Shown here in pieces: positions 10,264 through 64,000 of a stretch of 64,000 nucleotides of DNA. Source of the DNA: a virus (Duplodnaviria > Caudoviricetes); IMG/VR virus record IMGVR_UViG_3300028048_000072, positions 68,723-132,722 of that record. One strand, 5' to 3'. The position numbers and the translations under genes are program-made. Within the stretch, counting starts at the first letter, position 1. Each line of letters opens with the position of its first letter. The notes below the pieces were generated by a model, which was not told the DNA's origin, ran no database searches, and saw only the letters and a program-made list of their open reading frames with translations.

Positions 10264-12399
10264 ATGAACGAAACAAATGTCAAGATAAAGAAAATCAAGA
10301 AAGTTATGAGTGAAACAAATTTTATTGGTGTCGATTTGAGTAAAGGTAGTGATGTAGGAACTTGTAATGGAAAAGTTACACCTAAAGTTGTAAAAAAAGT
10401 AAAGAAGATTGTAAAAGATGAATCTACCATGAAATCTGATGTTGTAGACAATTCTCCTTGCGATTTCAGTGATTTTGAAAGTGGTAAAGTTGAAGTATCT
10501 AGTTCTGCTAATGTGCCGACTGTGAAAAAGGTGAAGAAAGAAATTAAAAAAATTGTAAAAGATATTAAAGACGAAATATCTAATTCTACAGATGTAATTT
10601 CTTTTGTACGAGTCATTGACTTGAAAAGAGAAGATTATTCAGAATTTACTGAAGAAAAATATCCATACGGTTTGACCTTCCTAGATTTTGAGGTGTTCAA
10701 GTATGATTGGTTGGTAGTTTTGATAGATGTTATTGAATTAAAAGAAACTATAATTGTAAACGATAGAAAAGCGTTGTTGAAGTTCTATATGTCTCATCGT
10801 AACAAATTACACGCTTCATATAACGGTCGCTCTTACGATTCTACAATATATAAAGGAATTATTCTTGGTATGAATCCTAAAGAATTGAATGATAAATTGA
10901 TTGTAGAAAGATTAAAACCTTTTCAAATTAGTAATAAATTTAAAGAAGTTGAATTATTAAATTATGATATAATGACTAAAATAGAATCATTAAAGGTTCT
11001 TGAAGCGTACCTACAAGATTCTATATATGAATCAAAAATTTCTTTTGACATTGATAGACCTCTTACAATGGATGAACTTGAGGAAACGATTCGCTACTGC
11101 CATAACGATGTTGTGGAATGTAAAAAAGTTTTTCTTTTAAGACACGATGATTTTGAAGTTAGTATGGGTGTAATTGAAATGTTTAATTTACCTATATCAA
11201 ATATAAATCTTACAAATGCACAATTGACTGCTAAAGTTTTGGAATGTGAAAGACCAAAAGAAGATAGAAAAGATGAATTTAATTTGTGGGTAGTTGATAC
11301 AGTAAAACTTGAAAAATATAAAGACGTTATCGATTGGTTTATGAATCCTGCAAATCATGATTATAGTAAATTTTATGTTCGTGATGTTTGTGGTATGAAA
11401 CATAAATTTGGTTGGGGTGGATTACATTCTGTGAATGATGAACCGATGATTATCAACGAACATGTACAAGATTGGGATGTGGCTAGTCTTTATCCCTCAC
11501 TTGATATTCGATACGAGTTGCTAACTAGAAATTGTAAACATCCTGAAAAATTTAAATTTATTTATGACGAACGCATTCGATTAAAGAAAGCAAAAGACCC
11601 TAAGAACAAATGTTTGAAGTTGATTTTAAATTCAACTTATGGAATTTGTAAAGATAAAAACAGTTCTGCTTACGACCCTTTGATGTCAAACATGACTTGT
11701 CTTACAGGACAACTTTTAATTCTTATGTTAATTGAATGGATTGAACCTTATGTAAAAATATGGGTTCAAACCAATACGGACGGAATCCAGTTTGTTGCTA
11801 AAGATGGTTGTCAAGAAAAGATAGAAAGTTTAATTCACAAATGGGAAGGTGTATCAGGTATGAATATGGAAGTCGAAAATATTTTGAAAACTTACCAATC
11901 GAACGTCAACAATTATACCTTCCAACTAGATGATGGGTCGTTTAAAAGAAAAGGAGCATATCTTAAAAAAGCAACTCCACTAGACGCTGATTTACCAATT
12001 GTCAATGAAGCAATGTTTAATTTCTTAGCATATGGAAAAAAAATTGAAGATACTATAAATGAATGTAATGATTTATACATGTTTCAGAAAGTGTATAAAA
12101 TTTCATCAAACTACAAATATGGTTATCATAATGGCAAAGAAATTAACGAAAAGGTGTATCGTATTTTTGCTTCTAATGATTTGAAAGATACATGGTTAGG
12201 AAAACAGAAAGAAAAAGGGGGAACGATTGAAAAATTTGCAAATTGTCCAAATAACTGTTTTCTTGAATTGGGAGATATACATGGTAAAAAATGTTCAGAA
12301 TATCCTATGTTGAATAAACAATGGTATATTGATTTAGCACAAGATAGAATTGAAAAAGGTTATCATTTGGATTGTAAACCAAGTATTTTTGATTTTTAA
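10264..12399 (+). CDS. family B DNA polymerase with 3'-5' exonuclease and Lys-rich N-terminal extension
   Basis: Exo motifs DFE, YNGRSYD, YCHND; Pol motifs DVASLYPS, KLILNSTYG, NTDG. Confidence 0.9.
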   Translation: MNETNVKIKKIKKVMSETNFIGVDLSKGSDVGTCNGKVTPKVVKKVKKIVKDESTMKSDVVDNSPCDFSDFESGKVEVSSSANVPTVKKVKKEIKKIVKDIKDEISNSTDVISFVRVIDLKREDYSEFTEEKYPYGLTFLDFEVFKYDWLVVLIDVIELKETIIVNDRKALLKFYMSHRNKLHASYNGRSYDSTIYKGIILGMNPKELNDKLIVERLKPFQISNKFKEVELLNYDIMTKIESLKVLEAYLQDSIYESKISFDIDRPLTMDELEETIRYCHNDVVECKKVFLLRHDDFEVSMGVIEMFNLPISNINLTNAQLTAKVLECERPKEDRKDEFNLWVVDTVKLEKYKDVIDWFMNPANHDYSKFYVRDVCGMKHKFGWGGLHSVNDEPMIINEHVQDWDVASLYPSLDIRYELLTRNCKHPEKFKFIYDERIRLKKAKDPKNKCLKLILNSTYGICKDKNSSAYDPLMSNMTCLTGQLLILMLIEWIEPYVKIWVQTNTDGIQFVAKDGCQEKIESLIHKWEGVSGMNMEVENILKTYQSNVNNYTFQLDDGSFKRKGAYLKKATPLDADLPIVNEAMFNFLAYGKKIEDTINECNDLYMFQKVYKISSNYKYGYHNGKEINEKVYRIFASNDLKDTWLGKQKEKGGTIEKFANCPNNCFLELGDIHGKKCSEYPMLNKQWYIDLAQDRIEKGYHLDCKPSIFDF

Positions 12400-12422
12400 C
12401 AAATTAACTATTTTAGTAATTG

Positions 12423-12502
12423 AACGATTACAGATAGGTGTGCGAAACCTTAGAAAGTAAAGAAATCGACTCCTTTTACTTTCATATCTGCAATCGTTTT
12501 TT
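12423..12502 (+). ncRNA. putative three-way-junction small RNA antisense to the 5' UTR of the downstream endonuclease gene
   Basis: P1 12423-12436/12485-12498; loops GTGCGAA (12440-12446) and TCGACTCCT (12466-12474); T-tract; TAACTAT at 12405. Confidence 0.65.
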
Positions 12503-12588
12503 ATTTAATTATTTTATTTATAAATATTAACTATTTATTATGTGTTATTCGCACTAGCACAAAAAATTATTTCTATAGGAGTCGAATT

Positions 12589-13734
12589 ATGACAAAAGAA
12601 GAAGCAACTCAAAAATATTATAATTTAGTGGAATTATGTAAAATTGAAGATGTTGATTGTGAAAAATACAACATGCATCATATCGAACCAATTTTTACAT
12701 TGAAAGAAAAATACAATGTAAAACGAACTAAGGAAATTAGATATAATAAGAATATTGATTTTGGTGAAGAAATAAAATGTTCAATTCCGCATCACATAAT
12801 GTTACATTTTTATTTATGTTTTATGTTTGATAGAGGAACGACATTATATAAAAGTGCAAAATCTTCATTTTGGTTCATTACTAATAAAACATTAACGCAA
12901 AGTATAGAATCTTTAACAGAAGATGATGTTAAAAATATAGGTAAATATTGTGAAGAGTTGAAGAAAACTAATTGGACGGATGAAGATAAGAAAAATTATA
13001 GAAAAACTAATAAACGAATAGAAGCCGACAGAGAATATAGAAGAAAAAACAAAGAAAGATTAGCAAAACAACATAGCGAATATTATAAAGAACATAAAGA
13101 AGAAAGAATGGAATATTATGAAGAATGGAGAAGTAAAAATGAACCTAGATTGAGGGAATATAGAAAAGAAAGAAATCAAATAATAAGAAATCGCTTGTGT
13201 GTAGACCCAAGATGTATTATTAGTAATAAAATAAAATCAAAAATAACAAATTGGAGAAATTTGTCTAGTTGGATGGATAAAAATCCTCAAAATGAATTAG
13301 TAAAAGAATTTAAATCATCTAATGATTTTGCTGATTATTATCTTATTAAAGATGAAAATAACAATTATATATACGATATTGAATTAGCGGAATCTATCTT
13401 AAAAACAACGACAAATAAAAAATTTTCAAATATATTAAATTTTAAAATACAAGGAGTTAAAAATCCTAAAGATAGTAATGTTCGTTTATGTATAGACCCC
13501 AGATTTGGAAAAACGATAATTATATCTAAATACAAAAGTATAAATTGGAATTCAGAAATTACAGAATGGAGAAATTTGTATAATTGGTGTAAACGTAATT
13601 CTGATAATGAACTGATTGAAAATTTAAAACCCAATGAATTTGCAAACAAATATTTAATAATTGATTCAGAAGGAAATTACATTTATGATGAAGAAACAGC
13701 ATTAAAAATTATTAATAAAGAAAATAATGATTGA
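12589..13734 (+). CDS. free-standing HNH-like endonuclease with duplicated C-terminal domain
   Basis: HHIEP...HIMLH; charged helical repeat region; two RLCxDPR...WRNL...YLI repeats. Confidence 0.65.
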   Translation: MTKEEATQKYYNLVELCKIEDVDCEKYNMHHIEPIFTLKEKYNVKRTKEIRYNKNIDFGEEIKCSIPHHIMLHFYLCFMFDRGTTLYKSAKSSFWFITNKTLTQSIESLTEDDVKNIGKYCEELKKTNWTDEDKKNYRKTNKRIEADREYRRKNKERLAKQHSEYYKEHKEERMEYYEEWRSKNEPRLREYRKERNQIIRNRLCVDPRCIISNKIKSKITNWRNLSSWMDKNPQNELVKEFKSSNDFADYYLIKDENNNYIYDIELAESILKTTTNKKFSNILNFKIQGVKNPKDSNVRLCIDPRFGKTIIISKYKSINWNSEITEWRNLYNWCKRNSDNELIENLKPNEFANKYLIIDSEGNYIYDEETALKIINKENND

Positions 13735-47795: not shown

Positions 47796-49535
47796 TTACT
47801 CATAAGATACTTTAATTGTACTTTCTTTATACATCAAAATATCTTTTCTTGTTTTAAGAATGATATTATTAGTAGTTAATCCATATCTAACTTTTACAAC
47901 ATATTCTTTTGTAGTATCAAAATCTGCATTATTAAATTTAATACTAACGTTTCCCGTAGATAAATAAATTATAGAACCACTAATATCCCAAACATCTGTG
48001 TTTGCAGAAATCAAATATCCATTAGAATCTACAGTTGCGAATAATTGATAAGTATCATCATCTTCACCTTTTTCTTTAATATAGCATGCAGTTTTTGTAT
48101 TAGAAATAGGATAAAGAGGGATATTAAATTGAAATATCTTAGGTGCATTAGGATTTGTTTCACAAGTCTTTTCAGAATAAATATAACTTGTATGATGGTC
48201 TACACCATTTACTTCATCAATCAATCTGATAAAATCTGATTCATAAATATTTTCATTAAAGTTCATGTTTTCAATCGAATAATTATCAACTAAAGTTGTT
48301 TCAATATCACTCCTTACTTGTGATAATACATAAGAAGAATTTAAAACAACGGCATTTACATCAAAAATCAACGGTATTTTTTCAACCGTTTCAAACTGAA
48401 CAATATCAGTAGGGTCATTTTTAGAATGAATATCTTCAATTACTTGATTCTTTTCATCATCTGTCAAGTTGTTGTAAATACTATCCAACAATGCTAAATG
48501 TACAACATTTTCAGATGAAGGAATAAATGTCCACGGGTCATAACCATTATCTTTATTAATTTCATAAGCACCCCAAACATTTACTTTAGAAATATACGCA
48601 AATTGTTTAATCAATGTTTCATAATCTTCTGTAGAAGATGCACGATTTCCCGCTTGATATACTCTAGGTGAAAGTTGTCTGATTTCATCGATTGTAGGAT
48701 AATCTTTACCACCAATCAAAGAACTTTCATTTTTTACATAAAGTTTTACGGGTTTACCATTAATATCAAACGCTTGTGTTTCAACATTTGTAATTATTCC
48801 ACTAGAATAAATATTACCGTCTGCACCTTTTGTAGCAATATATTTGAATTCTACAACATCATTAATCATGAGTTTTTGACCGTAAATATTGTTTCCAAAT
48901 TTAATTGTAACACCACTTAAATCTGATTTTGTAACCAATTCATAAACTTTATCTGTAGGTTCACATTCAAATAAACTGTCTACTCTTTCCCATGCAATAC
49001 CATTTACATAAAGGTCATACATGGAATTATCAACATCTGCATCCTCGATAAACTTTTCTTCATAAAGATTACCCATTGCTAAAAACTTTACAGATTTTGC
49101 TTCACCTTGTTTACAACCAATCTTTACATAATTTTCAGATGCAGAAAAATTGTATGCTTTATCTGATACAAAGAAAATATCATTTCCACTAAATTGAAAA
49201 TATTTTGGAATAATAATATCTGTACCATATGAATTTTCAAAATTTTCATCGGTAGATACTATAAGATTACCGATAGCACCTTGTTTTCTAGGCACTACAT
49301 ATCCATGTACTGCAGACTGAACTAATAATGATGATTTATTTCTTGCTTTAGTCCACCAATTCTCATAAGTAAGATATTCATTGTATTGCATTTGATAAGC
49401 CATTTCTTGAACAATACCATCAATCAAACAGTCTGTTACACCGTAATTTGCAAAATTTGCCCATTCACTCTTACTTGAAAGATTTGTTAATATTCTTTGT
49501 TTTATACTGTCAAAATCAAATTGAATTGTAGACAT
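47796..49535 (-). CDS. baseplate wedge protein (T4 gp6 / baseplate J-like)
   Basis: FDFDSIK, GYVVPR, IKFGNNIYG, GGKDY..IDEIR, RASSTEDY. Confidence 0.85.
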   Translation of the reverse strand: MSTIQFDFDSIKQRILTNLSSKSEWANFANYGVTDCLIDGIVQEMAYQMQYNEYLTYENWWTKARNKSSLLVQSAVHGYVVPRKQGAIGNLIVSTDENFENSYGTDIIIPKYFQFSGNDIFFVSDKAYNFSASENYVKIGCKQGEAKSVKFLAMGNLYEEKFIEDADVDNSMYDLYVNGIAWERVDSLFECEPTDKVYELVTKSDLSGVTIKFGNNIYGQKLMINDVVEFKYIATKGADGNIYSSGIITNVETQAFDINGKPVKLYVKNESSLIGGKDYPTIDEIRQLSPRVYQAGNRASSTEDYETLIKQFAYISKVNVWGAYEINKDNGYDPWTFIPSSENVVHLALLDSIYNNLTDDEKNQVIEDIHSKNDPTDIVQFETVEKIPLIFDVNAVVLNSSYVLSQVRSDIETTLVDNYSIENMNFNENIYESDFIRLIDEVNGVDHHTSYIYSEKTCETNPNAPKIFQFNIPLYPISNTKTACYIKEKGEDDDTYQLFATVDSNGYLISANTDVWDISGSIIYLSTGNVSIKFNNADFDTTKEYVVKVRYGLTTNNIILKTRKDILMYKESTIKVSYE

Positions 49536-49577
49536 ATTCACTCCTAGTACATAAGAAAATAGTTAGATGATATTAAA

Positions 49578-49904
49578 TTAAAAATCCCTTTTCAGAACCT
49601 TAATATCATCAGAAAATGAACCACCAATATTCATAATCTGAATATATCCTAATTCTTCCAAACCTTTCAAAGTTTTGGTATTAGCACGAATAAACACAAT
49701 ATTTGATTCAATTGCCTTTTTATGACATTTTTCAAGGAACGAATATGTACTATTTTTATCATTCTTGAATTCATCAAAATTAGCATAAAATCTACTCTGA
49801 TTTTCAGTAAAATAATTGAATATATAATTTTCATCTTTGAATTCAGTTAGTCTATTCTGAATTTCATTCCACAACTTCTCTTGTGCTTTTGTTAATTTAT
49901 CCAT
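49578..49904 (-). CDS. hypothetical protein
   Basis: own TTGACA promoter and AGGGG RBS. Confidence 0.55.
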   Translation of the reverse strand: MDKLTKAQEKLWNEIQNRLTEFKDENYIFNYFTENQSRFYANFDEFKNDKNSTYSFLEKCHKKAIESNIVFIRANTKTLKGLEELGYIQIMNIGGSFSDDIKVLKRDF

Positions 49905-50561
49905 AATGATTTACCCCTTTCTCATTAAGATACTTTGATTATATATAATTGTATATCGAATGTCAATTCAAATTTAAATTATTTTTAACAAAATTTTTCG
50001 CAGTAATCCATTTTACATTATACTTTTTCGCAATACTATAAATTGATACATGATTGTTTATCATTATTTCAATTTCAGTTTTATATGGTGTTAATTTATA
50101 TACTTTAGGTTTTTCACCTTTTCTTCTTCCAATATGTTGTCCGTTTGCCATTCTCATTCTTAATGCTTCCCTTGTTCTTTCTGAAATTCTTTGTCTTTCT
50201 GTTTGAGCAACTATAGCATAAACAACACACATCATATTAAATTCTAAAGTACCACTAACTAAATTTTCTTTAATCAAATGTACTTCTACTTTCTTATTCT
50301 GTAGCATCTCTAATGTAATTAAAGTATCAATAATTGTTCTTCCTAATCTTGATAATTCAGACACAATTAAAACATCACCTTCTTTTAAAGAATTACATAA
50401 AATTCCTAAAACTCTCTTTTCTCTAGGTACAGTACCACTAATTGTTTCATTTACAAATTTGTCCAATTTGAACTTCTTGTAAGAACAATATTCCTTTATA
50501 AAATATTGTTGACTTTCCACTGTCTGAAAATTTGTACTAACTCTAGTGAACTACCTACTCC

Positions 50562-51872
50562 CTAAAGGGAGTAGGCTTCGTGCTTCTCCGACTGTGGGTT
50601 AGAAGATTCACCATAATTATGGTTGCTACATTTAAGAGCCGAATCGACTAGAGCCTTCATCTCCACACGCTTATAATTGGTACGTTCCATACCTATGTTA
50701 TTTTTATAAAACCAAAGCATATTGTAAGTTGCGTGTAAATCTCTATCCATAGAAACCCCACAACCGCAGACAAACATTCTATCTTTCACAGTCAATTTAT
50801 CATGAAACACACCGCAATTTGTGCAGAGTTTTGTCGTGGGAACAGACTTTGCAAGAATCGATGTTTTAGAATTTTGTTTAAGTTTTGATTTAACTCTACC
50901 TAAAACAGAATGTTGAACTTTCTTACCATGACCATTTTTCTGCCAATTTGAAAGTTGTTCATCTTGAATAACAATGTTTTCAAATTCATTCAAATGAGCA
51001 ACAATCTTATTAGCCAAATCACCTTTTTGATTAGAAAGTTTTCTATACGCTTTTCTTAGTTGTTTGACTGTTTTAATGTAGTTCTTTGAGCCTTTCTTCA
51101 TTCGTCTGTTTAGTTTTACAGACAGTTTCTTGATACGCTCACTTTCTTGAACTTGTACATTAATCTTTTCTCCATTTGAAAGAGTAAAAGAAGTCTCACA
51201 ACCAAAATCTATAGCAACGGTTTCACCGTTAGTTTTCTTTTTGTTTATTTTTTCTTTATTTGTGAATGTCGTTATTGACACATAATATCCGCAAGGAGTA
51301 TTTAATAATTTGAAATCTGCATAATCAAGGTCTTTATTTATAAACTGATTCAACCCATTTACTACAATCGTTCCTTTTATACCTTGTAATTTAATTCGTT
51401 TTGAGGAAACAATTTTATGAGTTACTCCATATTGTTTATATGTTACAGATTTTAATTCTTTACAAAATTTTAATCTTCCAACTTTATAACCTTTCTTTTT
51501 CAAAGACGATAAAGTTTTAATGTTTGCACAAATTTCATCAAGAATTGTCTGTTTGATACTTGCAGGAATGTATTGTAATTTATATTGAGATAAATTTTTA
51601 TCTTTATCTGAAATTGTAATTTCTTTAATTTTCGTATCAAAATTCCAAATTTTATTGTTTTCTTTATCTTGGTTAGACCAATTAAGAATATGATTTTTAT
51701 ATCTTTTTCCTTCTACAAAAATCATTTGTAATTGTTCTTTTTGTAATTTTGAAAGTTTATTCTCTTGAATTTTTATTTGGAAAACACGACAAACTTGATT
51801 CTGTCTTTTCTTTCTAGTTTCAGACATAGTTTGAGAAATTTGCTTATTTTTCTTCAAATTTTTGTTTTCCAT
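50562..51872 (-). CDS. tnpB: TnpB RNA-guided nuclease
   Basis: RuvC AIDFG, IVIQDE, DRDLHA; zinc finger CTNCG...CGCG. Confidence 0.9.
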   Translation of the reverse strand: MENKNLKKNKQISQTMSETRKKRQNQVCRVFQIKIQENKLSKLQKEQLQMIFVEGKRYKNHILNWSNQDKENNKIWNFDTKIKEITISDKDKNLSQYKLQYIPASIKQTILDEICANIKTLSSLKKKGYKVGRLKFCKELKSVTYKQYGVTHKIVSSKRIKLQGIKGTIVVNGLNQFINKDLDYADFKLLNTPCGYYVSITTFTNKEKINKKKTNGETVAIDFGCETSFTLSNGEKINVQVQESERIKKLSVKLNRRMKKGSKNYIKTVKQLRKAYRKLSNQKGDLANKIVAHLNEFENIVIQDEQLSNWQKNGHGKKVQHSVLGRVKSKLKQNSKTSILAKSVPTTKLCTNCGVFHDKLTVKDRMFVCGCGVSMDRDLHATYNMLWFYKNNIGMERTNYKRVEMKALVDSALKCSNHNYGESSNPQSEKHEAYSL

Positions 51873-51964
51873 AATTTCCTTTATTATACTAGTTACAGTA
51901 TAATTTGTCAATATAGATAGTTAAAATAATTGACAATTATACTATAAATATATAAAATATAGTT

Positions 51965-52369
51965 ATGAAACAGAAATATAAAACTTTAAATCATGAAAAA
52001 TTCAAGATTCGATATCACATAATATTCTCAACAAAATATAGAAGAAAATGTCTGAATGAAATAAGAACGGATTTATTAAATTCTATGAAAAGAGCAGAAT
52101 CATTACAAAATAAATGGAAAATCGAAATTATGGAAATAGATAAAGACCATATTCATTTCTTGATTTCCGCTACACCTACAGATTGTATTTATAAAATAAT
52201 TCATTCTTTAAAACAAATTTCAACTTACGATATGTGGAAATTACATCATGATTGGTTATCGAAGTTTTATTGGAAACAACATCATTTATGGACTAGAGGA
52301 TATTTCTGTACGACAATAGGAGAAATTTCAGAAGAAAAAATTAAACATTATATTGAAAATCAAGGATAA
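51965..52369 (+). CDS. tnpA: IS200-type Y1 (HUH) transposase
   Basis: YHIIFSTKYRR, DHIH, LWTRGYF, YIENQ. Confidence 0.95.
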   Translation: MKQKYKTLNHEKFKIRYHIIFSTKYRRKCLNEIRTDLLNSMKRAESLQNKWKIEIMEIDKDHIHFLISATPTDCIYKIIHSLKQISTYDMWKLHHDWLSKFYWKQHHLWTRGYFCTTIGEISEEKIKHYIENQG

Positions 52370-52516
52370 TGTGGCAATTCACATAGCCACCCTTTAGGGT
52401 GGCATCTATCTTGCCACTTTTCTGTATAACCAATTATCATTTTAAACAAACCCCTTTTTGTAATTATTTTTTTAGATTTAATTACTTTATCAAAATGTTT
52501 AAGTTTAATCAATAGG

Positions 52517-54577
52517 TTAGGCTAGTTTTAATCCCAATTTATCATAAATTTCATCACCAAATGTTTTTAATGAATGTTGAGATTTTTCAAATTCTAATTG
52601 TTCATCAAAAATATATTGTGGGTCTAATGTTCCAAATCTATCTGCAAGTGTACAACATCCTACAACGCTATCGACAACATCTTTCCCAAAATACCCCAAC
52701 CTGCTTGTAGTCCAATCTTCATTCTCAAAATCACACCATTCGCCTTTTATATGGTCAATTTTATTATGTAAACCTTTTCCATCTTGTGTTTTAGAATAAA
52801 TTAATGCTTTATAATTATTCTTTGCTATAATATTTCTACCCATTTTTACACGTCTTTGAGTTAATGCAGAAACATGACTTAAATAAGGTTCAATAGGGTA
52901 GTCTACAGATAATTTAATACAGTCAATTCCAATTCGATTTAAATATTGAATTGTGGTATCACTTTGGAATCCATCAAGAGAAACTTTACCAAATTTTATT
53001 CCACCATAAACTGACATATCTCTTATTAAATATCTAAAGGCATCCATATTTATTTCTTCTTTTGTTGCTAGAATAGGCAAACTGAAATCAACAATATACA
53101 CTTTTTCACCTTTAGTGTTTTGTTCCAAATGACACATAGAAATACAAGCCATATCATGTGTTTTTGCCAAGTCTATTGAAGCAAATCTAACTGCAAAAGG
53201 ATTTCTATAAAAAGTATAATTACTTCCTACACCACTATAAACAAATAATCCGCTGTTTTTTACAATATCCCATAAAAGATTTTCAGACGGCAAAGAAGTT
53301 GGTGCATGATGAAACATTAAGAAGTTTTTAAGATTTTCTGTAAACGCATCTTCAATAACATCATAATTAGTGATAAGTTTAAGGTCATTACCACCACTAG
53401 GAACAGCACCATAGTCTTTTAAGATTTTAGATGGTGTATCCATAGCAACATCATATAAATCTATAGGCATATCTATTAATTCGTCATCGTTATAATTTTT
53501 CCTTTCTTCTTCACTAATAATCTTACAAGGTTTTGCAACATTACCTTTAAACATTGTAAATACTTTTGAATGGTCTTTTTGATAAATTGGAAACAAATGT
53601 TCTTGAATTTCCCATTTTTTATGATTTGAATAAAGAATATTTTTATCATCTTTATGTTGTGCAATCCATTGGTCTGCCAATCCTTCCATACTATTAGGAG
53701 ATGAATCGATAATGATTGTAGTTTCTGTATTATTATAACCAAAACGAGATGCTACACGATTTATACCGTCTGTTAACATTCGCATAACTCTTTCTTCAGG
53801 CATTTGTTCACACAAAAATGCCATTTCAGTTACAGAAAAATTTAAAATTGTTCTTCCGACCAAATCTGACGGTTCACAAGCAACATCAAAATAAACATCA
53901 CCAATTCTAATGATAGAGTTACCGTTTGAAGTATTACACCAAAGAATTTTCCCACTATTAAGATATTCGGGGTTGGTCATATCTCTTTCATATCTTAATT
54001 TATGAAACATCGTGGAGTTTTCCATAATAGAAATCATCGGTTTTAATACCAAGTCATAACAAGTTGATTTTGTAAAAGAAACCGAAGTATCAGTTAATCG
54101 TGTAGAACGAGCCAATTTAAAATATTGTTTAGGATTTCGCAAAGATAGCGTATAAACTGCACGAAATAATTTTAACAAACCAACAAGCGTACTCTTTCCA
54201 AAACCGATACAATCGTATAATACATCTGTATTTTTACCATTCATTGGATTAAAAAATGTTAGAAAATTTTCTTTAATATGGGGATATAAATCTTCTGACA
54301 TTGAGCCAATCCATTTATCAGTTAAAAATTCTTCGGGTGTAACTTTAAAAGTATGATTTATTTTCCATGAGTTTTCTAACAAATTACCCTTTTCGTTTTC
54401 AGATAATTTTTCATCATGTAAAATTACTTTCATTGCAGAATTAATATTATCTATATCACTCGCATCCAACATTTTAAAAACATCTTGTAAGTAACTCAAA
54501 TCTTCTTGTGGATGTGCTATAACATCTTTACATATATCTACCAAATTTTTATCTACATTCATTGTCCAATCTTCCAT
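52517..54577 (-). CDS. terL: terminase large subunit
   Basis: IGFGKST Walker A, IDSSP coupling motif, SIDLA...D, DGFQS, KDVVDS nuclease acidic residues. Confidence 0.8.
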   Translation of the reverse strand: MEDWTMNVDKNLVDICKDVIAHPQEDLSYLQDVFKMLDASDIDNINSAMKVILHDEKLSENEKGNLLENSWKINHTFKVTPEEFLTDKWIGSMSEDLYPHIKENFLTFFNPMNGKNTDVLYDCIGFGKSTLVGLLKLFRAVYTLSLRNPKQYFKLARSTRLTDTSVSFTKSTCYDLVLKPMISIMENSTMFHKLRYERDMTNPEYLNSGKILWCNTSNGNSIIRIGDVYFDVACEPSDLVGRTILNFSVTEMAFLCEQMPEERVMRMLTDGINRVASRFGYNNTETTIIIDSSPNSMEGLADQWIAQHKDDKNILYSNHKKWEIQEHLFPIYQKDHSKVFTMFKGNVAKPCKIISEEERKNYNDDELIDMPIDLYDVAMDTPSKILKDYGAVPSGGNDLKLITNYDVIEDAFTENLKNFLMFHHAPTSLPSENLLWDIVKNSGLFVYSGVGSNYTFYRNPFAVRFASIDLAKTHDMACISMCHLEQNTKGEKVYIVDFSLPILATKEEINMDAFRYLIRDMSVYGGIKFGKVSLDGFQSDTTIQYLNRIGIDCIKLSVDYPIEPYLSHVSALTQRRVKMGRNIIAKNNYKALIYSKTQDGKGLHNKIDHIKGEWCDFENEDWTTSRLGYFGKDVVDSVVGCCTLADRFGTLDPQYIFDEQLEFEKSQHSLKTFGDEIYDKLGLKLA

Positions 54578-54640
54578 TTATATTATAAAAAATTATTTCC
54601 TTTTTATATTATAAATAGTAATTTATATACATTTTAAACA

Positions 54641-54865
54641 GACGGCTTGATTGAACAGTGGCATAATGGGTCTTTTGCTTCTTATGTTTGGACTTTCTTG
54701 GTTCAAATGGAAACATTAAATTATTGTATACCTAATTTTTTCAAAGGAATATATGCAGGAGATTCTGCATTTGAATTAACGTGTACTAAAAATAAAGATT
54801 CATTAAAAATACAAAATATTGTTCATGTCGCTAACGTAATCGATTTGTATATAAAAGGTTATTAA
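54641..54865 (+). other. silent tail-fibre C-terminal cassette A
   Basis: DGLIEQW...IKGY*; no RBS; in-frame TAA just upstream; 23-bp repeat at 54635-54657. Confidence 0.85.
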
Positions 54866-55125
54866 TAGCCTTTAACGCTCCAAGTAATCTGCGAAACTAT
54901 GATATAATTTGTGGCAGGGGTAGAATTGCCTAGTTTAAATCCTGTTGTTGCTAAAGTCTCATCCTTAACATTCAATACACATAATCCTCCGTAAGCATTA
55001 ACAGCATTAATTCCTGATATTGAATATCTAGTATTACTCATTACAATTGGTAATACTACATTGGCGGAATATTGAGTTTGGGCACTAGACGGTCGAGATT
55101 TCCCCCATTGTTCAATTAAACCGTT
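54862..55125 (-). other. silent tail-fibre C-terminal cassette B (absent from the ORF track)
   Basis: NGLIEQWGKSRPSS...WSVKGY*; stop overlaps the cassette A stop in TTAA. Confidence 0.85.
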
Positions 55126-55134
55126 CAGTTAGAA

Positions 55135-56709
55135 TTAATAACCCTCCACCTCATAAGTAAATAAAGCAGGGTTAAAGGCTTGTCCACTATTTCCTCGTAT
55201 TTGAAATCTTATTTTCATATTTGTTTTTGTCTTATCATAAGAGTTAGCACACAAAGCAATATCTCCATGTGAGTTAAACTCCGATATATCGAGCGACACA
55301 GAATAAGTGGTATTTTTGAAAGCGATAGGAAAAATAAAAGTCCCTCCAAATATTCCACTTCCAGAATAAGACTGTTTTATAAATCCGTCCGCATTGACGG
55401 TATATCTATTTGAAGCGTCTGCATAATTACACAAAACGGGGTTTTCCATAATCAACCAATATGTACCCGTATACATTAATGTTAAACTTGTGTATGCATC
55501 GAATACTTTATTAGGATAATTAGCATCATAATTTCCACCCGCAAATAAATGACTTCTTAATGCGAAAAGATTTGAATCAACGTATCCAACATCTGTACTT
55601 AATATTCCTGCTCGTCTTGCAACAATTTGTTTTTTATTAGAATCACTTTCACCATTAAATTTTAAATAAACACTAGATATTTCATTACTTGATTGTAAGG
55701 CATTAGCAAATGTAATTTTTAATGTAGTACCCGCTACGATATTAACATCGGGTAAAGTAATATCAAAAATTTTAGATGTATCAGAAATATTATCAGAATT
55801 AGCATCTATACAATAATAACCATATGTTTCTAATGTTGATTTTGTTACATTATTAATTTTATTAAGAGTTACTGCATCATCTGCAATTTTAGATGTAACT
55901 ACTACACCGTCTACAAGTTCACTATTCAAAGATGGATTATTTGAATAAATATTTTGAATATAAGTACCTTCGATTGTAGAAGGATTTGATGGTAATGTAA
56001 TTACTGCTAAAATTAATTTATTTTGTGGACATTTTGGAACAGTAGGTGTTACGCTATCATCACCTTTAATAATGCTAATAGATGACGATTCATCAATAAC
56101 AACTAAATCTTTTCTTGAATTAGTAACATTTAAATCTGAATATTGTAATATATAAGGTGATGATAATGTTACTAAATTTCCATTAATAAAAGCAGAACCT
56201 TTATTTATGATAATTTTACTAGAATCTGTTGGATTATACATAACATGGAAATTTGGATAATCACTCTTAAAATTTTCATAATATTCTCTTGACCAACTTT
56301 TTTCACTAACATCAAAATTCTGTAAAACACCTAATGTATCATAAATTGCTCTACCAAAAATTAAATCTGTAGGTTGAATATTGCTAGAAGATACACCTAA
56401 GAAATCCATATAATTATCTTCAATATTTAACCAATTAAATCTACCTACAATATAATTGTTTGCTTGTGAAACCGATACAGAAACATCAGATGAAGTTTCT
56501 AATCTAGTACCCGTTTCAACGGAAGTATCTTCAAAGAAACAAAGAAAAGGAGAAATTGAAACGGTAGAATCTGTTAATTTTGTTAATTCTCCACCTTTAA
56601 TAATTCCTTTAGGTATCAAATTGTACATAATTTTATTAAATCCTTCAGATGTACCTTCTTGTTTAAAATCAAAAGTTAATGTCTGATTACCTAAATTTGT
56701 TGAACCCAT
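55135..56709 (-). CDS. tail fibre / receptor-binding protein with exchangeable C-terminal ~85 aa
   Basis: structural N-terminus; C-terminus DGFIKQ...FPIAF...EGY* homologous to the four flanking cassettes; TAACTAT at 56744. Confidence 0.8.
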   Translation of the reverse strand: MGSTNLGNQTLTFDFKQEGTSEGFNKIMYNLIPKGIIKGGELTKLTDSTVSISPFLCFFEDTSVETGTRLETSSDVSVSVSQANNYIVGRFNWLNIEDNYMDFLGVSSSNIQPTDLIFGRAIYDTLGVLQNFDVSEKSWSREYYENFKSDYPNFHVMYNPTDSSKIIINKGSAFINGNLVTLSSPYILQYSDLNVTNSRKDLVVIDESSSISIIKGDDSVTPTVPKCPQNKLILAVITLPSNPSTIEGTYIQNIYSNNPSLNSELVDGVVVTSKIADDAVTLNKINNVTKSTLETYGYYCIDANSDNISDTSKIFDITLPDVNIVAGTTLKITFANALQSSNEISSVYLKFNGESDSNKKQIVARRAGILSTDVGYVDSNLFALRSHLFAGGNYDANYPNKVFDAYTSLTLMYTGTYWLIMENPVLCNYADASNRYTVNADGFIKQSYSGSGIFGGTFIFPIAFKNTTYSVSLDISEFNSHGDIALCANSYDKTKTNMKIRFQIRGNSGQAFNPALFTYEVEGY

Positions 56710-56743
56710 AGTCTAAAACTCCTTTATCTTTATTTATAATAAA

Positions 56744-56750
56744 ATAGTTA
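56744..56750 (-). promoter_or_regulatory. TAACTAT putative late promoter (representative copy, before the tail fibre gene)
   Basis: same or 1-mismatch motif upstream of baseplate, terminase, lysis-like, Dps and Hsp20 genes and the sRNA candidates. Confidence 0.6.
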
Positions 56751-56771
56751 ATTGTATATACAATCTAAACA

Positions 56772-56996
56772 GACGGCTTGATTGAACAATGGGGGACATT
56801 TAATTATTCTAATATTGCTAGAAATTTTTTAATAGTATATACGACAATTCCTATGTTTAGTTGTGTCTTTAATTCAAACAGTGCAGATAAACCTCAATAT
56901 AGAGAATTTCCTAGAGCAATTTCTGAAACACAATGGAATCAATTATATGGAGATGCTTCCATTTCTAATGGAACATGGATAGCCAAAGGCTATTAA
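56772..56996 (+). other. silent tail-fibre C-terminal cassette C
   Basis: DGLIEQWG...AKGY*; repeat at 56766-56788. Confidence 0.85.
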
Positions 56997-57256
56997 TATC
57001 CAATACACATAACTCCTATATATTGAGATGTTACATAATACTCATAATGTAACACATCAAAAGTAGATTTTGTTTTATTTTGTACTATTAGCACAGTTCC
57101 TTTCTTAGTTGATATACTGTTAAAAGTATCTTCACAGTTATCTTCTGTAACTGCAACGAAATATCTTGTATTAGAATACTCTACAAATAAATTACATGGA
57201 GTAACTACATCAGCTATAGAAGCAATATACGTTTGCCATTGTTCAATCAAGCCGTC
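56993..57256 (-). other. silent tail-fibre C-terminal cassette D
   Basis: DGLIEQW...IGY*; repeat at 57240-57262; stop overlaps cassette C stop. Confidence 0.85.
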
Positions 57257-57321
57257 TGTTTAAAATGGATATATTCAATAAAAAAATAAAAGGTTATTCT
57301 AAAACAGAATAACCATTTAAA

Positions 57322-57828
57322 TTAAACATTAATTAAGTTTAATTTTCCATTTATTCGTTGATAAACATTTTGATTTGAACTACCTCTCATTTTTAATTTC
57401 AAATCTTTTTTATCATCTTCAAATCTACCATCTATTAAATAATCGACACTTGATAAAATATAATTTATTGAATCATCATTCATCAATTGTAATTCTCCCA
57501 AAGTATATCCACTCCACAGATATATTAAAATATTTGGATTTTTATATTTAATTTGTTGAATGATATATTGAGTATTTTTTCTATTATATTCTGCTAAAGG
57601 TTCACCACCTAATATAGAAAAATCACGATGAACATTATAAGCATTAATCAAATTATTTAACTCATCACAAAGTTTATCAATCTCAATTTCTGTACCATAA
57701 TTTGGATTCCATGTTATTTGATTAAAACAGTTTTTACAATGATGTGGACAACCACTCATAAATAAAGATACTGTAATTCCTTCCATACAATTAACTGTAT
57801 CATTTTCTTTTATTTCTGCGTATTTCAT
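57322..57828 (-). CDS. nrdG: anaerobic ribonucleotide reductase activase
   Basis: GCPHHCKNCFN, GGEP, IDGRF, RGSSNQ. Confidence 0.95.
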   Translation of the reverse strand: MKYAEIKENDTVNCMEGITVSLFMSGCPHHCKNCFNQITWNPNYGTEIEIDKLCDELNNLINAYNVHRDFSILGGEPLAEYNRKNTQYIIQQIKYKNPNILIYLWSGYTLGELQLMNDDSINYILSSVDYLIDGRFEDDKKDLKLKMRGSSNQNVYQRINGKLNLINV

Positions 57829-57992
57829 ATAATCCCTATGATTAATCCCTAAAGATTTATTATCTCTTTAGGGATTATAATTTAATCAATTATAAATAAA
57901 TATTTATATAAAAATCAATATAATTAATGATTTTGTTCGATAATTAAATCTTTGCTTGCATCCTACTGTCCTCTATCTTTTTAACAAAAAAT

Positions 57993-60491
57993 TTAATCAC
58001 CCAAATGTATAACTCGATTTTTAATATCGCTCAAACGACCTTGGTTTGTATTCATTGAATTTTCATTGATACCTCTTGAAATTTGACCTAGATAGCCACA
58101 CAATCGCACGAAATATGATAATTTTTTTTGATTTTTATTTAAACATTTTGGACATTGACATAATAATTTTCCATTATCATTAATAATGCTCAATTCACCT
58201 TCATATCCACATTCATCACAAGAACCTTCATTTCTGAAATTAAATTCTGCATAAAGAATATTATCATACATGTATTTCATCAATTGAAGAATTGCTTTTT
58301 TATTTGTTACCAATGACGTACCACATTCAACATAAGATACTGCCCCACCTTTTGAAAGAGCAAGATATTCACCTTCGAGTTTGAGTTTAGTAAACGCATC
58401 GATTTTTTCTGCAGGATTTACATGATAACTATTACAAACATAATCATGGTCTGTAACTCCAACAATTAATTCACCATCTGCGAGTTTTTTTAATGCTTTT
58501 GCAAATTTTTCAGTTGTACTTTCCTCGGGAGTTCCATAAATAGAATAAGGAATTTTATCAGCAACTTTCCATTCAGTACATTTATCATTCATATATTTCA
58601 TGATTTCTTTAGAAAGTTTAATACCTTCTTTAGTAGTATTAGACTTACCAATTAAACACATACAAGTTTCGTATAATCCAACATATCCCAAAGAAATTGT
58701 AGTGTAATCAACGTCATTTTCAAGCATTGAATCAAGATTATCTTGAGGGTTCAATCTAGCAAGTCCACCATTCATCCAAAGAATAGGAGCATTTTCTGCT
58801 CTAATCTTTTTAATACTCTTATGTCGTTCTTGTAATCCCTTACGGCAAATTTCAAGTCCATAATCTAATACTTCATAAAAATCTCTATTATCCAATTTTG
58901 ATTTTAATGCTACATAAGGGAGATTAATTGTTACTACACCTTGATTCCATCGACCATATGTTTTAGGTTCTAATGTTTTAATTGAATATTCATTTTTTTC
59001 TGAATCAAAAGAAACTGTTAAAATTCTAGCAGTATTACCAAGATAATTATAAACTATCTTCCAATCTGCAAATTCAATATCTCCACTTTCTTTAGAATTT
59101 CTATCTAATTTTTTACAAACAGTTTCCCACAATTCTTTCAATGATTTTGGTTCAAGAGAACGACAAATATATTTTAAATTAGGTTTATCAAGAATTTCCC
59201 AATTTATTCCATAGTTAAGAATTGATGAAATCTCTGCATGTTGAATTTTTCCATCTTTTTCCACATAAGTTTTCTTTCCCCAATATGGAGTAAGGAAACT
59301 TCTGCATCCCATATTCGGGATGATTTGACCTTCTTTTGCTTCACGACATTTCTTTTCTGAAAGAATATCAGGTTGCATACGTTTTACCTCACAATCACAT
59401 GCCAATTTATTCAGATAATAATATGGGTCTGATTCCTCAACATTTAATCCGTCACAAATCCAATAAAGAAGTTTTGGAAATAATGGTGAAATGATTCTAC
59501 CTTTTCTGTCTTTTACACCTTCAGTTCTTTGTCTTAAAACTTCTTCGATAATCATAACAAGGTCTTTTTGTTCTTGTTTTGTCATCGCTTCTGCTAAACA
59601 AAGATTTACACTTAAAAAAGGAGTTTGACCATTAGCACTACTCATTGTCAATGTTTGATATTGGAATGTTTGTATACCACGAGTAATTTCTTTTTTTAAA
59701 TCTTCATCAATAAATTTTTGCATTTGCTCTTCTGTTAAAAATGAAGAACATCTATCATAAATTCTTTTTGTAATTGTTTCTCTTGATTTCTGTAAAGCAT
59801 AAAGTGTTGATGCCCATGAATATGTAGCACCACCATATTGACTTGAACTTACATGTAAAGTTATTTGTGCTAAATGATTACATGCCGTACTAAATGAATG
59901 AGCAGAATCTATTTTTACATCTCCCATAGCAAAATTATTTGTAAACATATCAAATGTATTCATCAAACAACAATTAGACATATTCTGTAATGGTGAATAA
60001 TCCATATCATGAAAATGAATCATTCCAACATCATGTTCTTTTGTTACTTCTTTAGGTAACATTTTTCTACCGATAGTTTTACATTTTGTACCTGCAATAT
60101 AATCACGTTGTGTACTCAATAATGTTGGTTTTTTATTCGCATTATCCCCACTAACATCTTCATTAGTAGAATCACAAATTGAAATGATTTTTAATTCATC
60201 ATCATCATACTTTTTATCTTTCTTTTTATTATTTCTATATAAAACATATGCTTTTGCAACATCATATTGATTTTTATTCATCAATGCTTTTTCTACAAAA
60301 TCATGAATTGTATTAACATCGATTGTTGAATAATTTTTAATTTTTTTCTGCACAAAATCTACAACTTGATTTATTTTTTCATCAGTCATTCTTTTTTCTT
60401 TTTCTACAGAATTATTTGCCAATTTAACGGCATTAAAGATTTTACTTAGATGGAAATCTTCTTCATTTCCATTACATTTTCTTACTTTCAT
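57993..60491 (-). CDS. nrdD: anaerobic (class III) ribonucleotide reductase with ATP cone
   Basis: HFHD, NCC, GQTPF, MGCRSF, NSYH, RLCGYL glycyl-radical motif. Confidence 0.95.
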   Translation of the reverse strand: MKVRKCNGNEEDFHLSKIFNAVKLANNSVEKEKRMTDEKINQVVDFVQKKIKNYSTIDVNTIHDFVEKALMNKNQYDVAKAYVLYRNNKKKDKKYDDDELKIISICDSTNEDVSGDNANKKPTLLSTQRDYIAGTKCKTIGRKMLPKEVTKEHDVGMIHFHDMDYSPLQNMSNCCLMNTFDMFTNNFAMGDVKIDSAHSFSTACNHLAQITLHVSSSQYGGATYSWASTLYALQKSRETITKRIYDRCSSFLTEEQMQKFIDEDLKKEITRGIQTFQYQTLTMSSANGQTPFLSVNLCLAEAMTKQEQKDLVMIIEEVLRQRTEGVKDRKGRIISPLFPKLLYWICDGLNVEESDPYYYLNKLACDCEVKRMQPDILSEKKCREAKEGQIIPNMGCRSFLTPYWGKKTYVEKDGKIQHAEISSILNYGINWEILDKPNLKYICRSLEPKSLKELWETVCKKLDRNSKESGDIEFADWKIVYNYLGNTARILTVSFDSEKNEYSIKTLEPKTYGRWNQGVVTINLPYVALKSKLDNRDFYEVLDYGLEICRKGLQERHKSIKKIRAENAPILWMNGGLARLNPQDNLDSMLENDVDYTTISLGYVGLYETCMCLIGKSNTTKEGIKLSKEIMKYMNDKCTEWKVADKIPYSIYGTPEESTTEKFAKALKKLADGELIVGVTDHDYVCNSYHVNPAEKIDAFTKLKLEGEYLALSKGGAVSYVECGTSLVTNKKAILQLMKYMYDNILYAEFNFRNEGSCDECGYEGELSIINDNGKLLCQCPKCLNKNQKKLSYFVRLCGYLGQISRGINENSMNTNQGRLSDIKNRVIHLGD

Positions 60492-60576
60492 TAATATGAA
60501 CCTCCAACAAGATTAAATAGTAGATATAATAATAACACGATAAAACATAACATTCAAGTTTTATAATTAATTAAAT

Positions 60577-60650
60577 AAAAAAAAAGAAATCCGTTCATAT
60601 TTCAGAACGGATTTCAAAAGAGGTAAACATGAACTTAAAAATCAAGTCAC
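60577..60650 (-). ncRNA. putative ~75-nt small RNA with an anti-RBS segment
   Basis: TTGACA-17-TATATT promoter (60685-60657); CAUGUUUACCUCUUUU; 11-bp terminator 60586-60615 + U-tract. Confidence 0.5.
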
Positions 60651-63350: not shown

Positions 63351-64000
63351 TTACTCCTTTGCAATTTCTGCTTCTGCGTCTATTCCAGTTATCTCTTTGA
63401 ATACTTCGTTGTTCCAGTTCGGAAGTTTCAATAACTGTTTGTGTTCTTCTTTGCTTGCTTTATCCCAAGCCAATTTCCACGCTTCTTTATATTCAAGAGT
63501 TTTCAAATATCCACCGCAAGTTTCAATTTCCTTTTTGTGTACTTCTTTTTCTTCTTCTGTAGCAGTATCATGTGACACCCAAACAGTTAAATCAAAATAG
63601 CACCAAGAAGGAATGACAATTTCATCTCTTTTCTTTTTTGTCATTTTATTAAACATTCTGACATTCGGTTCGTTGGAATTGAAAAATCCGCTATTATATG
63701 AACCGCTATTACATGAACCGCTATTATATGAACCGCTATTCCATGAACCGCTATTATATGAACCGCTATTACATGAACCGCTATTATATGAACCGCTATT
63801 ACATGAACCGCTATTCCTTGAACCGCTATTCCTTGAACCGCTATTCCTTGAACCGCTATTACATGAACCGCTATTATATGAACCGCTATTACATAAACCG
63901 CTATTCCTTGAACCGCTATTCCTTGAACCGCTATTACATGAACCGCTATTATATGAACCGCTATTACATAAACCGCTATTCCTTGAACCGCTATTCTTTG
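63351..64000 (-). CDS. NSGxx pentapeptide-repeat phage protein (5' truncated by the window edge)
   Basis: repeat array is in frame with ORF 63351..63656 (GGYLK...LPNWN..VF.EITGI C-terminus). Confidence 0.85.
   Translation of the reverse strand, partial: KNSGSRNSGLCNSGSYNSGSCNSGSRNSGSRNSGLCNSGSYNSGSCNSGSRNSGSRNSGSRNSGSCNSGSYNSGSCNSGSYNSGSWNSGSYNSGSCNSGSYNSGFFNSNEPNVRMFNKMTKKKRDEIVIPSWCYFDLTVWVSHDTATEEEKEVHKKEIETCGGYLKTLEYKEAWKLAWDKASKEEHKQLLKLPNWNNEVFKEITGIDAEAEIAKE
63688..64000 (-). repeat. 15-bp tandem repeat, at least 20 units, encoding NSGS[YCWRK]
   Basis: GAACCGCTATTNNNT units from 63700 to 63999. Confidence 0.95.

Follow-up and report, generated by a model that had tools for sequence, protein, structure and literature searches.

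The interrupted invertase gene

This report concerns the gene for a predicted DNA invertase of a large phage, and the insertion sequence (IS) of the IS200/IS605 family that lies within its sixth codon. The DNA analysed, hereafter the window, is a stretch of 64,000 nucleotides corresponding to bases 68723-132722 of the 132.7-kb IMG/VR virus record IMGVR_UViG_3300028048_000072, and positions are numbered from its first base. The record is linear, with a G+C content of 27% and an estimated completeness of 72%, and the replicon is a large gut or rumen phage of virulent appearance. Read on the minus strand, the gene begins with ATG ATA ATT GGT TAT AC (52440-52424), is interrupted by 1,878 bp (52423-50546), and resumes with T AGA GTT AGT ACA to reach a stop codon at 49963. 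Joining 52440-52424 to 50545-49963 yields a stop-free frame of 600 nucleotides encoding 199 residues, with the N-terminus MIIGYTRVSTNFQ (MIIGYTRVST). The 5' stump of the gene (52424-52440, minus strand) comprises codons 1-5 and two nucleotides of codon 6, the last five of which (52428 to 52424) form the TATAC motif discussed below, and it is preceded by a ribosome-binding region (52441-52462, minus strand) in which AAAGGGG stands 12 nucleotides from the ATG. The remainder (49963-50545, minus strand) extends from the last nucleotide of codon 6 to the stop, and is free of frameshifts and stop codons.

What is left of the coding sequence downstream of the insertion is a residual open reading frame (ORF) of 185 codons, which starts with a GTG at 50520 and corresponds to the protein from residue 15 onwards, such that Arg7 and Ser9 are absent. 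A TAG within the right end of the element closes the frame upstream of the remainder, and no start codon occurs between this TAG and the GTG. The residual protein matches the Resolvase profile at positions 17-144 only, and lacks the catalytic Ser and Arg that characterise serine invertases. Each of the two occurs in 119 of 120 aligned homologues, a gap accounting for the other row, and Tyr5, Arg7, Ser9 and Thr10, each conserved in at least 117 of the 120, are present both in the reconstructed frame and in the intact relative P0001. The latter protein aligns to 1-197 of the 203 positions of the Mpi model, which is the best family match of the invertase, albeit with a score (163 bits) below the equivalog cut-off (272 bits), and matches phrog_125, annotated as 'DNA invertase', at 4e-42. 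The interrupted gene is the sole serine recombinase gene of the 132.7-kb record.

Structure of the inserted element

The element (50546-52423, minus strand) has the order left end, tnpA (leftward), tnpB (rightward) and right end, the divergent layout of IS605 itself, and is not accompanied by a target duplication. Its boundaries carry an ambiguity of two nucleotides, since TATAC and the right end, GTTCAC, share a terminal AC; the limits 50546-52423, as placed in a preliminary description of this locus, are the canonical ones for the IS200/IS605 family. Also as in that family, subterminal hairpins are present in place of terminal inverted repeats. The left hairpin (52386-52403, minus strand; GCCACCC-TAAA-GGGTGGC) has a perfect 7-bp stem and is located 20 nucleotides inside the left end, while the right hairpin (50575-50554; CCTACTCCC-TTTA-GGGAGTAGG, followed by TAGTTCAC) has a 9-bp stem located 8 nucleotides inside the right end.

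The tnpA gene (51965-52369, plus strand), the end of which lies approximately 55 nucleotides from the left end, encodes a Y1 HUH transposase of 134 residues that matches PF01797 at 1.8e-29 and NF033573 with 113 bits against a cut-off of 55. Its motif H62-I-H64 and its predicted catalytic residue Tyr129 align with their counterparts in the ISDra2 and IS608 TnpA structures. A spacer of 53 nucleotides separates tnpA from tnpB, and divergent promoter-like sites (51883-51958) are found in this region, comprising TTGACA-17-TATAAT directed towards tnpB (51911 to 51883; 12 of 12 consensus positions) and TTGACA-17-TAAAAT directed towards tnpA (51930-51958; 11 of 12). The longest tnpB ORF (50562-51911, minus strand) has 449 codons, with the ATG at 51869 being the likely start of a protein of 436 residues. 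This protein scores above the cut-offs of PF01385 and PF07282, and has the RuvC D/E/D residues and zinc finger of TnpB, contained in the motifs IDFG (D235), IQDEQL (E318), CxxC...CxC and MDRD (389-391). The motif columns are invariant or nearly so among 121 aligned family members, the glutamate of IQDEQL occurring in 120. Its score with the NCBIfam model guided_TnpB (90.6 bits) is just below the cut-off of 100, and it aligns weakly to solved TnpB structures (E of 5e-6 to ISDra2 TnpB).

The last 170 or so nucleotides of the element (50546-50716, minus strand), which include the right hairpin and end with GTTCAC, are the predicted scaffold of an omega-RNA. Among five copies of the element that are 92% identical overall this segment is near-invariant, and the tnpB coding sequence immediately upstream has many silent changes. 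Judged by this conservation, the segment fits an omega-RNA overlapping the 3' end of tnpB. The element is apparently autonomous, and both TnpA and TnpB are predicted from their intact motifs to be active.

Empty sites in related phages

Relatives of the phage were obtained via protein cluster look-ups; megablast of the region against GenBank phages returned no match, and in IMG/VR, neither the invertase nor the empty site was located by pattern or protein scans. The cluster formed at 90% identity around the invertase remainder has four intact members of 199 residues (P0001, P0255, P0258 and P0259) and two shortened members of 185 residues. Five contigs (L004, L007, L008, L009 and L010), each from a different run, have an empty site and an intact invertase that is 96-98% identical, the BLAST alignment to the window breaking at 52424 and 50547 with an overlap of two nucleotides. 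All five read GGTTATAC|TAGAGTTAGT across the site, or equally GGTTATAC|TAGAGTTAGTAC, without a duplicated base. The claims of the preliminary description that an IS605 element occupies codon 6, that removal of 50546-52423 restores a frame of 199 codons complete with its ribosome-binding site, and that the residual ORF is without the catalytic serine all hold, the five natural empty sites agreeing with the reconstructed frame and the AAAGGGG sequence being retained in the IS-free relatives.

Three assemblies, namely the IMG/VR record, the European Nucleotide Archive (ENA) assembly ERZ27252073 and Logan SRR8442993, agree on the IS-bearing sequence with 100% identity, and the ENA copy (L006) was identical to the window throughout the 20.5 kb compared. 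An assembly chimera or artefact is ruled out by the three identical assemblies, and the insertion is real. The flanks on both sides of the site are 96-100% identical to those of the IS-free relatives, indicating that the insertion is recent. The IS-free alleles derive from other strains and samples, and differ by 7-34 nucleotides in the invertase gene. Comparison of the broken allele with the five intact ones revealed five private nucleotide changes, one of which is silent and four of which fall in three non-synonymous codons (S21F, V82I and A113V), as against 16 silent and four amino acid-changing differences in the intact allele of L004. The numbers are small, and hint that the broken allele may lean towards relaxed constraint. 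A step in identity at the insertion site, sought as the mark of a conversion tract left by homing, was not found.

Target motif, predicted guide and other copies of the element

Five further copies of this IS lineage, with nucleotide identities of 92-93%, occupy four sites elsewhere, on phage-like contigs: between a gene of 237 codons and dnaB, near helicase and DNA polymerase genes; between small genes; beside methyltransferase genes, near a T4-type portal gene; and on a solitary contig of 1.9 kb. TATAC precedes the left end in all five independent insertions, and homology between copies ceases at a right end that reads GTTCAC or GTTCAT. Insertion 3' of a fixed motif with no target-site duplication is the behaviour of IS200/IS605 elements. 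Of the two motifs put forward earlier for the target, TTAT and TATAC, only the second is upheld, since it stands before every left end; TATAC, as opposed to TTAT, is thus the target and also the expected target-adjacent motif (TAM) of TnpB. In the invertase gene the motif exists because of the codon pair Tyr5-Thr6. Thr6 (ACT) sets this phage clade apart; Ile stands at position 6 in 110 of 120 invertase homologues, and most related invertases would therefore escape insertion of this element.

The predicted guide, taken from the flank beyond the right end, is the 20-nucleotide sequence TAGAGTTAGTACAAATTTTC (50526-50545, minus strand), which spans invertase codons 6-12, including the catalytic RVST. 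The TAM plus guide is matched at 25 of 25 positions in all five IS-free relatives, and these phages are, as the preliminary description anticipated for IS-free genomes, predicted by sequence to be targets of the nuclease.

A scan of IMG/VR located one more copy of the element, at 95% identity. When 185,579 reference prokaryote genomes were scanned by pattern, a search confined to close relatives, no close copy was encountered, and only relatives of about 30% identity came up. Among the genomes scanned, the lineage has been seen only in phage-like contigs, and the phages carrying the other copies are distant relatives of the present one, with 65-80% nucleotide identity in replication genes. Depletion of TATAC was considered and discarded: the motif occurs 297 times against 639 expected from base composition, but 318 expected from a third-order Markov model, and it is not depleted in comparison with similar 5-mers either.

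A copy truncated at the 5' side, having tnpB and the right end only, is present in the IMG/VR contig L035 (2969-6676) beside an inverted element of the same family that is 65% identical. The record from which the window was taken has just one tnpA gene, plus two solo tnpB genes outside the window at record positions 12328-13623 (minus strand) and 64875-66176 (plus strand), encoding proteins of 431 and 433 residues that are 38% and 35% identical, respectively, to the TnpB of the element.

The tail-fibre module

The neighbours of the invertase locus are baseplate genes (including a gp6-like wedge gene, PF04865/phrog_219), a fibre-like gene, anaerobic ribonucleotide reductase genes and an unassigned gene of 686 codons. 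The tail-fibre, or receptor-binding, gene (55135-56709, minus strand) has 524 codons, with a constant part that extends to around position 55405 and is followed by the expressed tip, M. Four tip cassettes of 75-88 codons, which have no start codon, are arranged as two tail-to-tail pairs that flank the fibre gene on both sides, and each has a shared site at its start and a GY-stop at its end. Cassettes A (54624-54865, plus strand; recombination site 54624-54663) and B (54862-55140, minus strand; a more diverged site at 55140-55098) form one pair, and cassettes C (56755-56996, plus strand; site 56755-56811, 45 nucleotides upstream of the fibre start codon) and D (56993-57273, minus strand; site 57273-57217) form the other. 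The core of the shared site, AAACAGACGGCTTGATTGAACAATGG, encodes DGLIEQW. The module accordingly has inverted sites as in a shufflon, four in two orientations together with the junction site within the expressed fibre gene (55370-55404, minus strand), and a related phage provides evidence that they have been used. The contig L007 shares cassettes C and D with the window (94% identical), and its constant part is arranged as it would be after two inversions of the state seen in the window, the fibre gene being flipped and fused to D. It follows that the system has inverted in this lineage, and that the constant part is itself an invertible segment.

In the window, the silent cassettes together with their sites form open frames that are intact, and three of the sites are near-identical. 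The right half of the junction site in the expressed gene, TTTATAAAACA, departs from the TTRATTGAACA that is common to all 12 other sites compared, from the window, L004, L007, L009, L021 and L022. Moreover, tip M lies between the constant part and site B as an additional, fifth cassette, there being four cassettes in L007. To judge from the sequence of this junction, the expressed fibre may be fixed regardless of the state of the invertase.

The cassette repertoires of the window and L004 are wholly different, and among the window, L004, L007 and L021, with flanking genes that are 92-96% identical, turnover of tips is complete. Four genomes together have at least 12 different tips of 74-88 residues; all begin with DG(L/F)I(E/K)Q and end with GY, except for L3 of L004, which ends with NY. 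In L004 (2000-7800) the nrdD gene has the fibre gene on one side and the downstream cassette pair on the other, with nrdG missing from this place; in the window (54600-60600) both nrdD and nrdG are upstream of the whole module. If the sites of L004 are active, inversion would flip nrdD too.

A second phage with the interrupted allele

The genome ERZ27256887 (104 kb), known from its gene table only, has a TnpB (436 residues) and an invertase remainder (185 residues) identical to those of the window. The genes from one of 681 codons through the IS to the invertase remainder have the same positions within the locus, and an extra HNH gene is present. The fibre gene, of 516 codons, is on the opposite strand, and in spacing and length it agrees with the module of L021 and L022, in which a constant part that is 91-96% identical to that of the window has a 30-nucleotide (10-residue) deletion, is flipped, and is fused to a different tip. 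From the gene spacing and length in L021 and L022 (435 + 91 - 10 = 516 residues) we infer that ERZ27256887 has the same module. The length arithmetic fits four cassettes, and the junction of this phage seems to be a normal one, as in L021; the search for fibre homologues did not return the 516-residue protein. Since the fibre is flipped in this phage, the IS allele goes with more than one cassette state. The combination could have arisen through inversion in trans, through movement of the allele between phages by recombination or homing, or because fibre modules were exchanged.

In the Logan assembly SRR8442993, contigs break on both sides of the fibre gene, which forms a separate contig of 1,695 nucleotides that overlaps them by 30 nucleotides at 56735-56764 and at 55070-55099. 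The breaks point to branching of the assembly graph, caused either by a mixture of strains or by rearrangement in the IS-bearing sample. They were rejected as evidence of inversion, the break points not being where crossover within the site cores would fall.

Origin and maintenance of the insertion

The insertion is probably best regarded as a recent, selfish and fairly stable knock-out of a dispensable invertase by an autonomous, phage-borne element of the IS605 type, as opposed to a regulated two-way switch. According to this interpretation, the element, encoding TnpA, TnpB and an omega-RNA, would have entered single-stranded DNA directly 3' of TATAC in codons Tyr5-Thr6, parting the promoter, ribosome-binding site and first five codons from the rest of the gene, with the consequence that no protein with Arg7 and Ser9 would be made. 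Invertase-driven shuffling of the tip cassettes would then be switched off in this genome, and the insertion would persist because the invertase is presumably dispensable for lytic growth. TnpA could in principle excise the element without a scar, restoring TATAC followed by TAGAGTTAGTACAAATTTTC, yet the restored joint is the expected cutting target of the element's own TnpB-omega-RNA complex. Amid many replicating phage genomes, both revertants and co-infecting IS-free relatives might be cut, and subsequently repaired from IS-bearing copies. TnpB would in this way probably stabilise the insertion, and might also spread it. Precise excision and cutting of the donor joint, which the preliminary description had invoked, are indeed published properties of the family: scarless excision gives a donor joint that TnpB cuts, the element being regained when the cut DNA recombines with an IS-bearing copy (10.1101/2023.03.14.532601), and TnpB is a TAM-dependent, RNA-guided nuclease (PMC8612924). 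As a mechanism, this involves nothing beyond known IS200/IS605 biology.

Several points weigh against this interpretation. No Rfam omega-RNA family was matched in a permissive scan of 49500-53000, and the alignment fold of five right ends contained no compensatory pairs, the copies being too similar; furthermore, some TnpB proteins of the IS608 type were inactive in tests (10.1101/2023.03.14.532601). A second invertase could be encoded in the missing part of the record, or an invertase of the host or of a co-infecting phage could act in trans. Finally, the fibre is flipped in the second IS-bearing genome, so phages with the element may not have lost switching.

An extension of the favoured interpretation is that the element behaves as a gene drive, with TnpB cutting the intact invertase gene of co-infecting relatives and repair copying in the IS, the allele being common for that reason, irrespective of its effect on fibre switching. 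This is a tentative possibility. It is in keeping with the perfect match of TAM and guide in every IS-free relative, with the occurrence of the IS lineage, among the genomes scanned, in phage-like contigs only, and with the identity of TnpB and the invertase remainder in ERZ27256887 despite a fibre module that matches that of L021, where the constant part is approximately 9% diverged, has the 10-residue deletion and is flipped. There is, in addition, a precedent in the TnpB gene drive described for multicopy plasmids (10.1101/2025.02.20.638934); a literature search retrieved no paper showing one for phages. However, ordinary mosaic recombination between phages gives the same pattern, and no step in identity betrays a conversion tract at the insertion site. 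The fuller proposition, that an IS605/TnpB lineage restricted to phages is an RNA-guided drive which, among co-infecting relatives, spreads an allele that shuts off tip switching, with rare excision by TnpA as the sole way back, is improbable.

It is also conceivable, though rather unlikely, that the shufflon was already defunct when the element arrived, the fibre having been fixed on tip M by the gain of a tip with a degenerate junction and the invertase having lost its use, and that the IS landed, with neutral effect, in a gene that was already decaying into a pseudogene. The aberrant junction sequence, set against the uniform reading of the 12 other sites, would be explained in this manner, as would the status of M as a fifth cassette where L007 has four and the length arithmetic of ERZ27256887 fits four, and the private excess of amino acid changes in the broken allele. 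Less easily accommodated are the four silent cassettes, which with their sites remain intact open frames, three of the sites being near-identical, and the apparently normal L021-type junction of ERZ27256887, which places the IS allele also where the shufflon looks intact.

Reversible insertion and excision of an IS is a known route to phase variation in bacteria, and the preliminary description proposed that the present element is a reversible lock that couples transposon dynamics to host range; as an adaptive lock, it would be kept because cycles of insertion and precise excision switch fibre variation off and on. Excision would certainly restore a perfect ORF, the rest of the gene being without frameshift or stop, TnpA looks intact and has its own promoter-like site, and both states of the allele occur in nature. 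Nevertheless, the proposal is highly unlikely. The published role of TnpB is to erase excision events by restoring the transposon (10.1101/2023.03.14.532601), such that the element opposes reversion and revertants should be removed. The broken allele, with three private non-synonymous codons to one synonymous change where the intact L004 allele has four to 16, hints at relaxed constraint, and the degenerate junction of the expressed fibre means that a restored invertase might leave the expressed tip as it is. Elsewhere, the IS is found at unrelated places, with no sign of specialisation for invertase genes, and the element is not tied to one cassette state; the flipped fibre and other cassettes of ERZ27256887 bear on whether inversion is blocked where the element is present, without amounting to a clean test. 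As for an IStron or other self-splicing element, in which IS200/IS605 parts are joined with a group I intron and the host gene stays functional (10.1101/2023.11.20.567912), here by mending of the invertase mRNA, the idea can be dismissed, given that the permissive Rfam scan revealed no intron family at E<=1 and that the roughly 55 nucleotides between the left end and the end of tnpA leave no room for a ribozyme.

Comparison with known systems

The element resembles IS605 and IS608 of Helicobacter pylori, ISDra2 of Deinococcus radiodurans and ISGst of Geobacillus stearothermophilus in its Y1 HUH transposase, in a TnpB with RuvC residues and zinc finger, in hairpins near both ends, in insertion without duplication 3' of a short fixed motif, and in a guide (predicted here) drawn from the flank past the right end. 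It differs in its target, which is TATAC where theirs are TTAC or TTGAT, and in having been found, among the genomes scanned, in phage-like contigs and not in cellular genomes.

Known invertase-driven switching systems include Gin and the G segment of Mu, Cin and the C segment of P1, the Min multiple-inversion system of p15B, the R64 shufflon and the Mpi master invertase of Bacteroides. The fibre module shares with these a small serine recombinase gene adjoining inverted sites at the junction of constant and variable parts of the fibre, and several alternative C-terminal tips. Unlike them, it has cassette pairs on both sides of the gene and a constant part that itself flips, and its invertase gene is broken in the present phage. 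The resemblance to IS-mediated phase variation in bacteria lies in a gene that is turned off by an IS able to leave without a scar, the difference being the additional presence in this element of a nuclease gene, the product of which should destroy the revertant.

With the TnpB gene drive in plasmids (10.1101/2025.02.20.638934) the parallel is a multicopy replicon in which IS-free copies have the exact target and IS-bearing copies are available as repair template, the counterpart here being related phage genomes that would meet in co-infected cells. In contrast to the plasmid case, the replicon is a large, virulent-looking phage, and a drive would carry a defective allele of a gene that serves to vary host range. 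The locus provides a natural allele pair, in that an apparently autonomous TnpA/TnpB element is present in some phages and missing from others that are 96-99% identical around the site, with a perfect match to the predicted guide and TAM in each empty allele, and this renders TnpB-driven spread of transposons through phage populations, as in plasmids, testable with defined sequences. It also yields TATAC as the candidate TAM of a TnpB clade that is so far uncharacterised, and connects a mobile element with the presumed loss of a system that diversifies host range. Were the gene drive true, the spread of a selfish element would directly shape the host-range plasticity of a phage population.

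Other features of the region

A perfect sigma-70 consensus (TTGACA-17-TATAAT, 12 of 12 positions; 49938-49966, minus strand) overlaps the invertase stop codon and is directed into a downstream gene of 108 codons. A free-standing HNH gene of 172 codons is situated between nrdD and nrdG in L007 (4168-4686), L021 (1407-1925), L022 and ERZ27256887, and is absent from the window (57829-57992). The nrdD gene of L007 has 1,115 codons against 832 in the window, the difference being an insertion of approximately 850 nucleotides that could be an intein or a nuclease insertion. At the far end of the window (63351-64000, minus strand), a short-period repeat of the NSGS type, resembling a pentapeptide array, runs past the last base.

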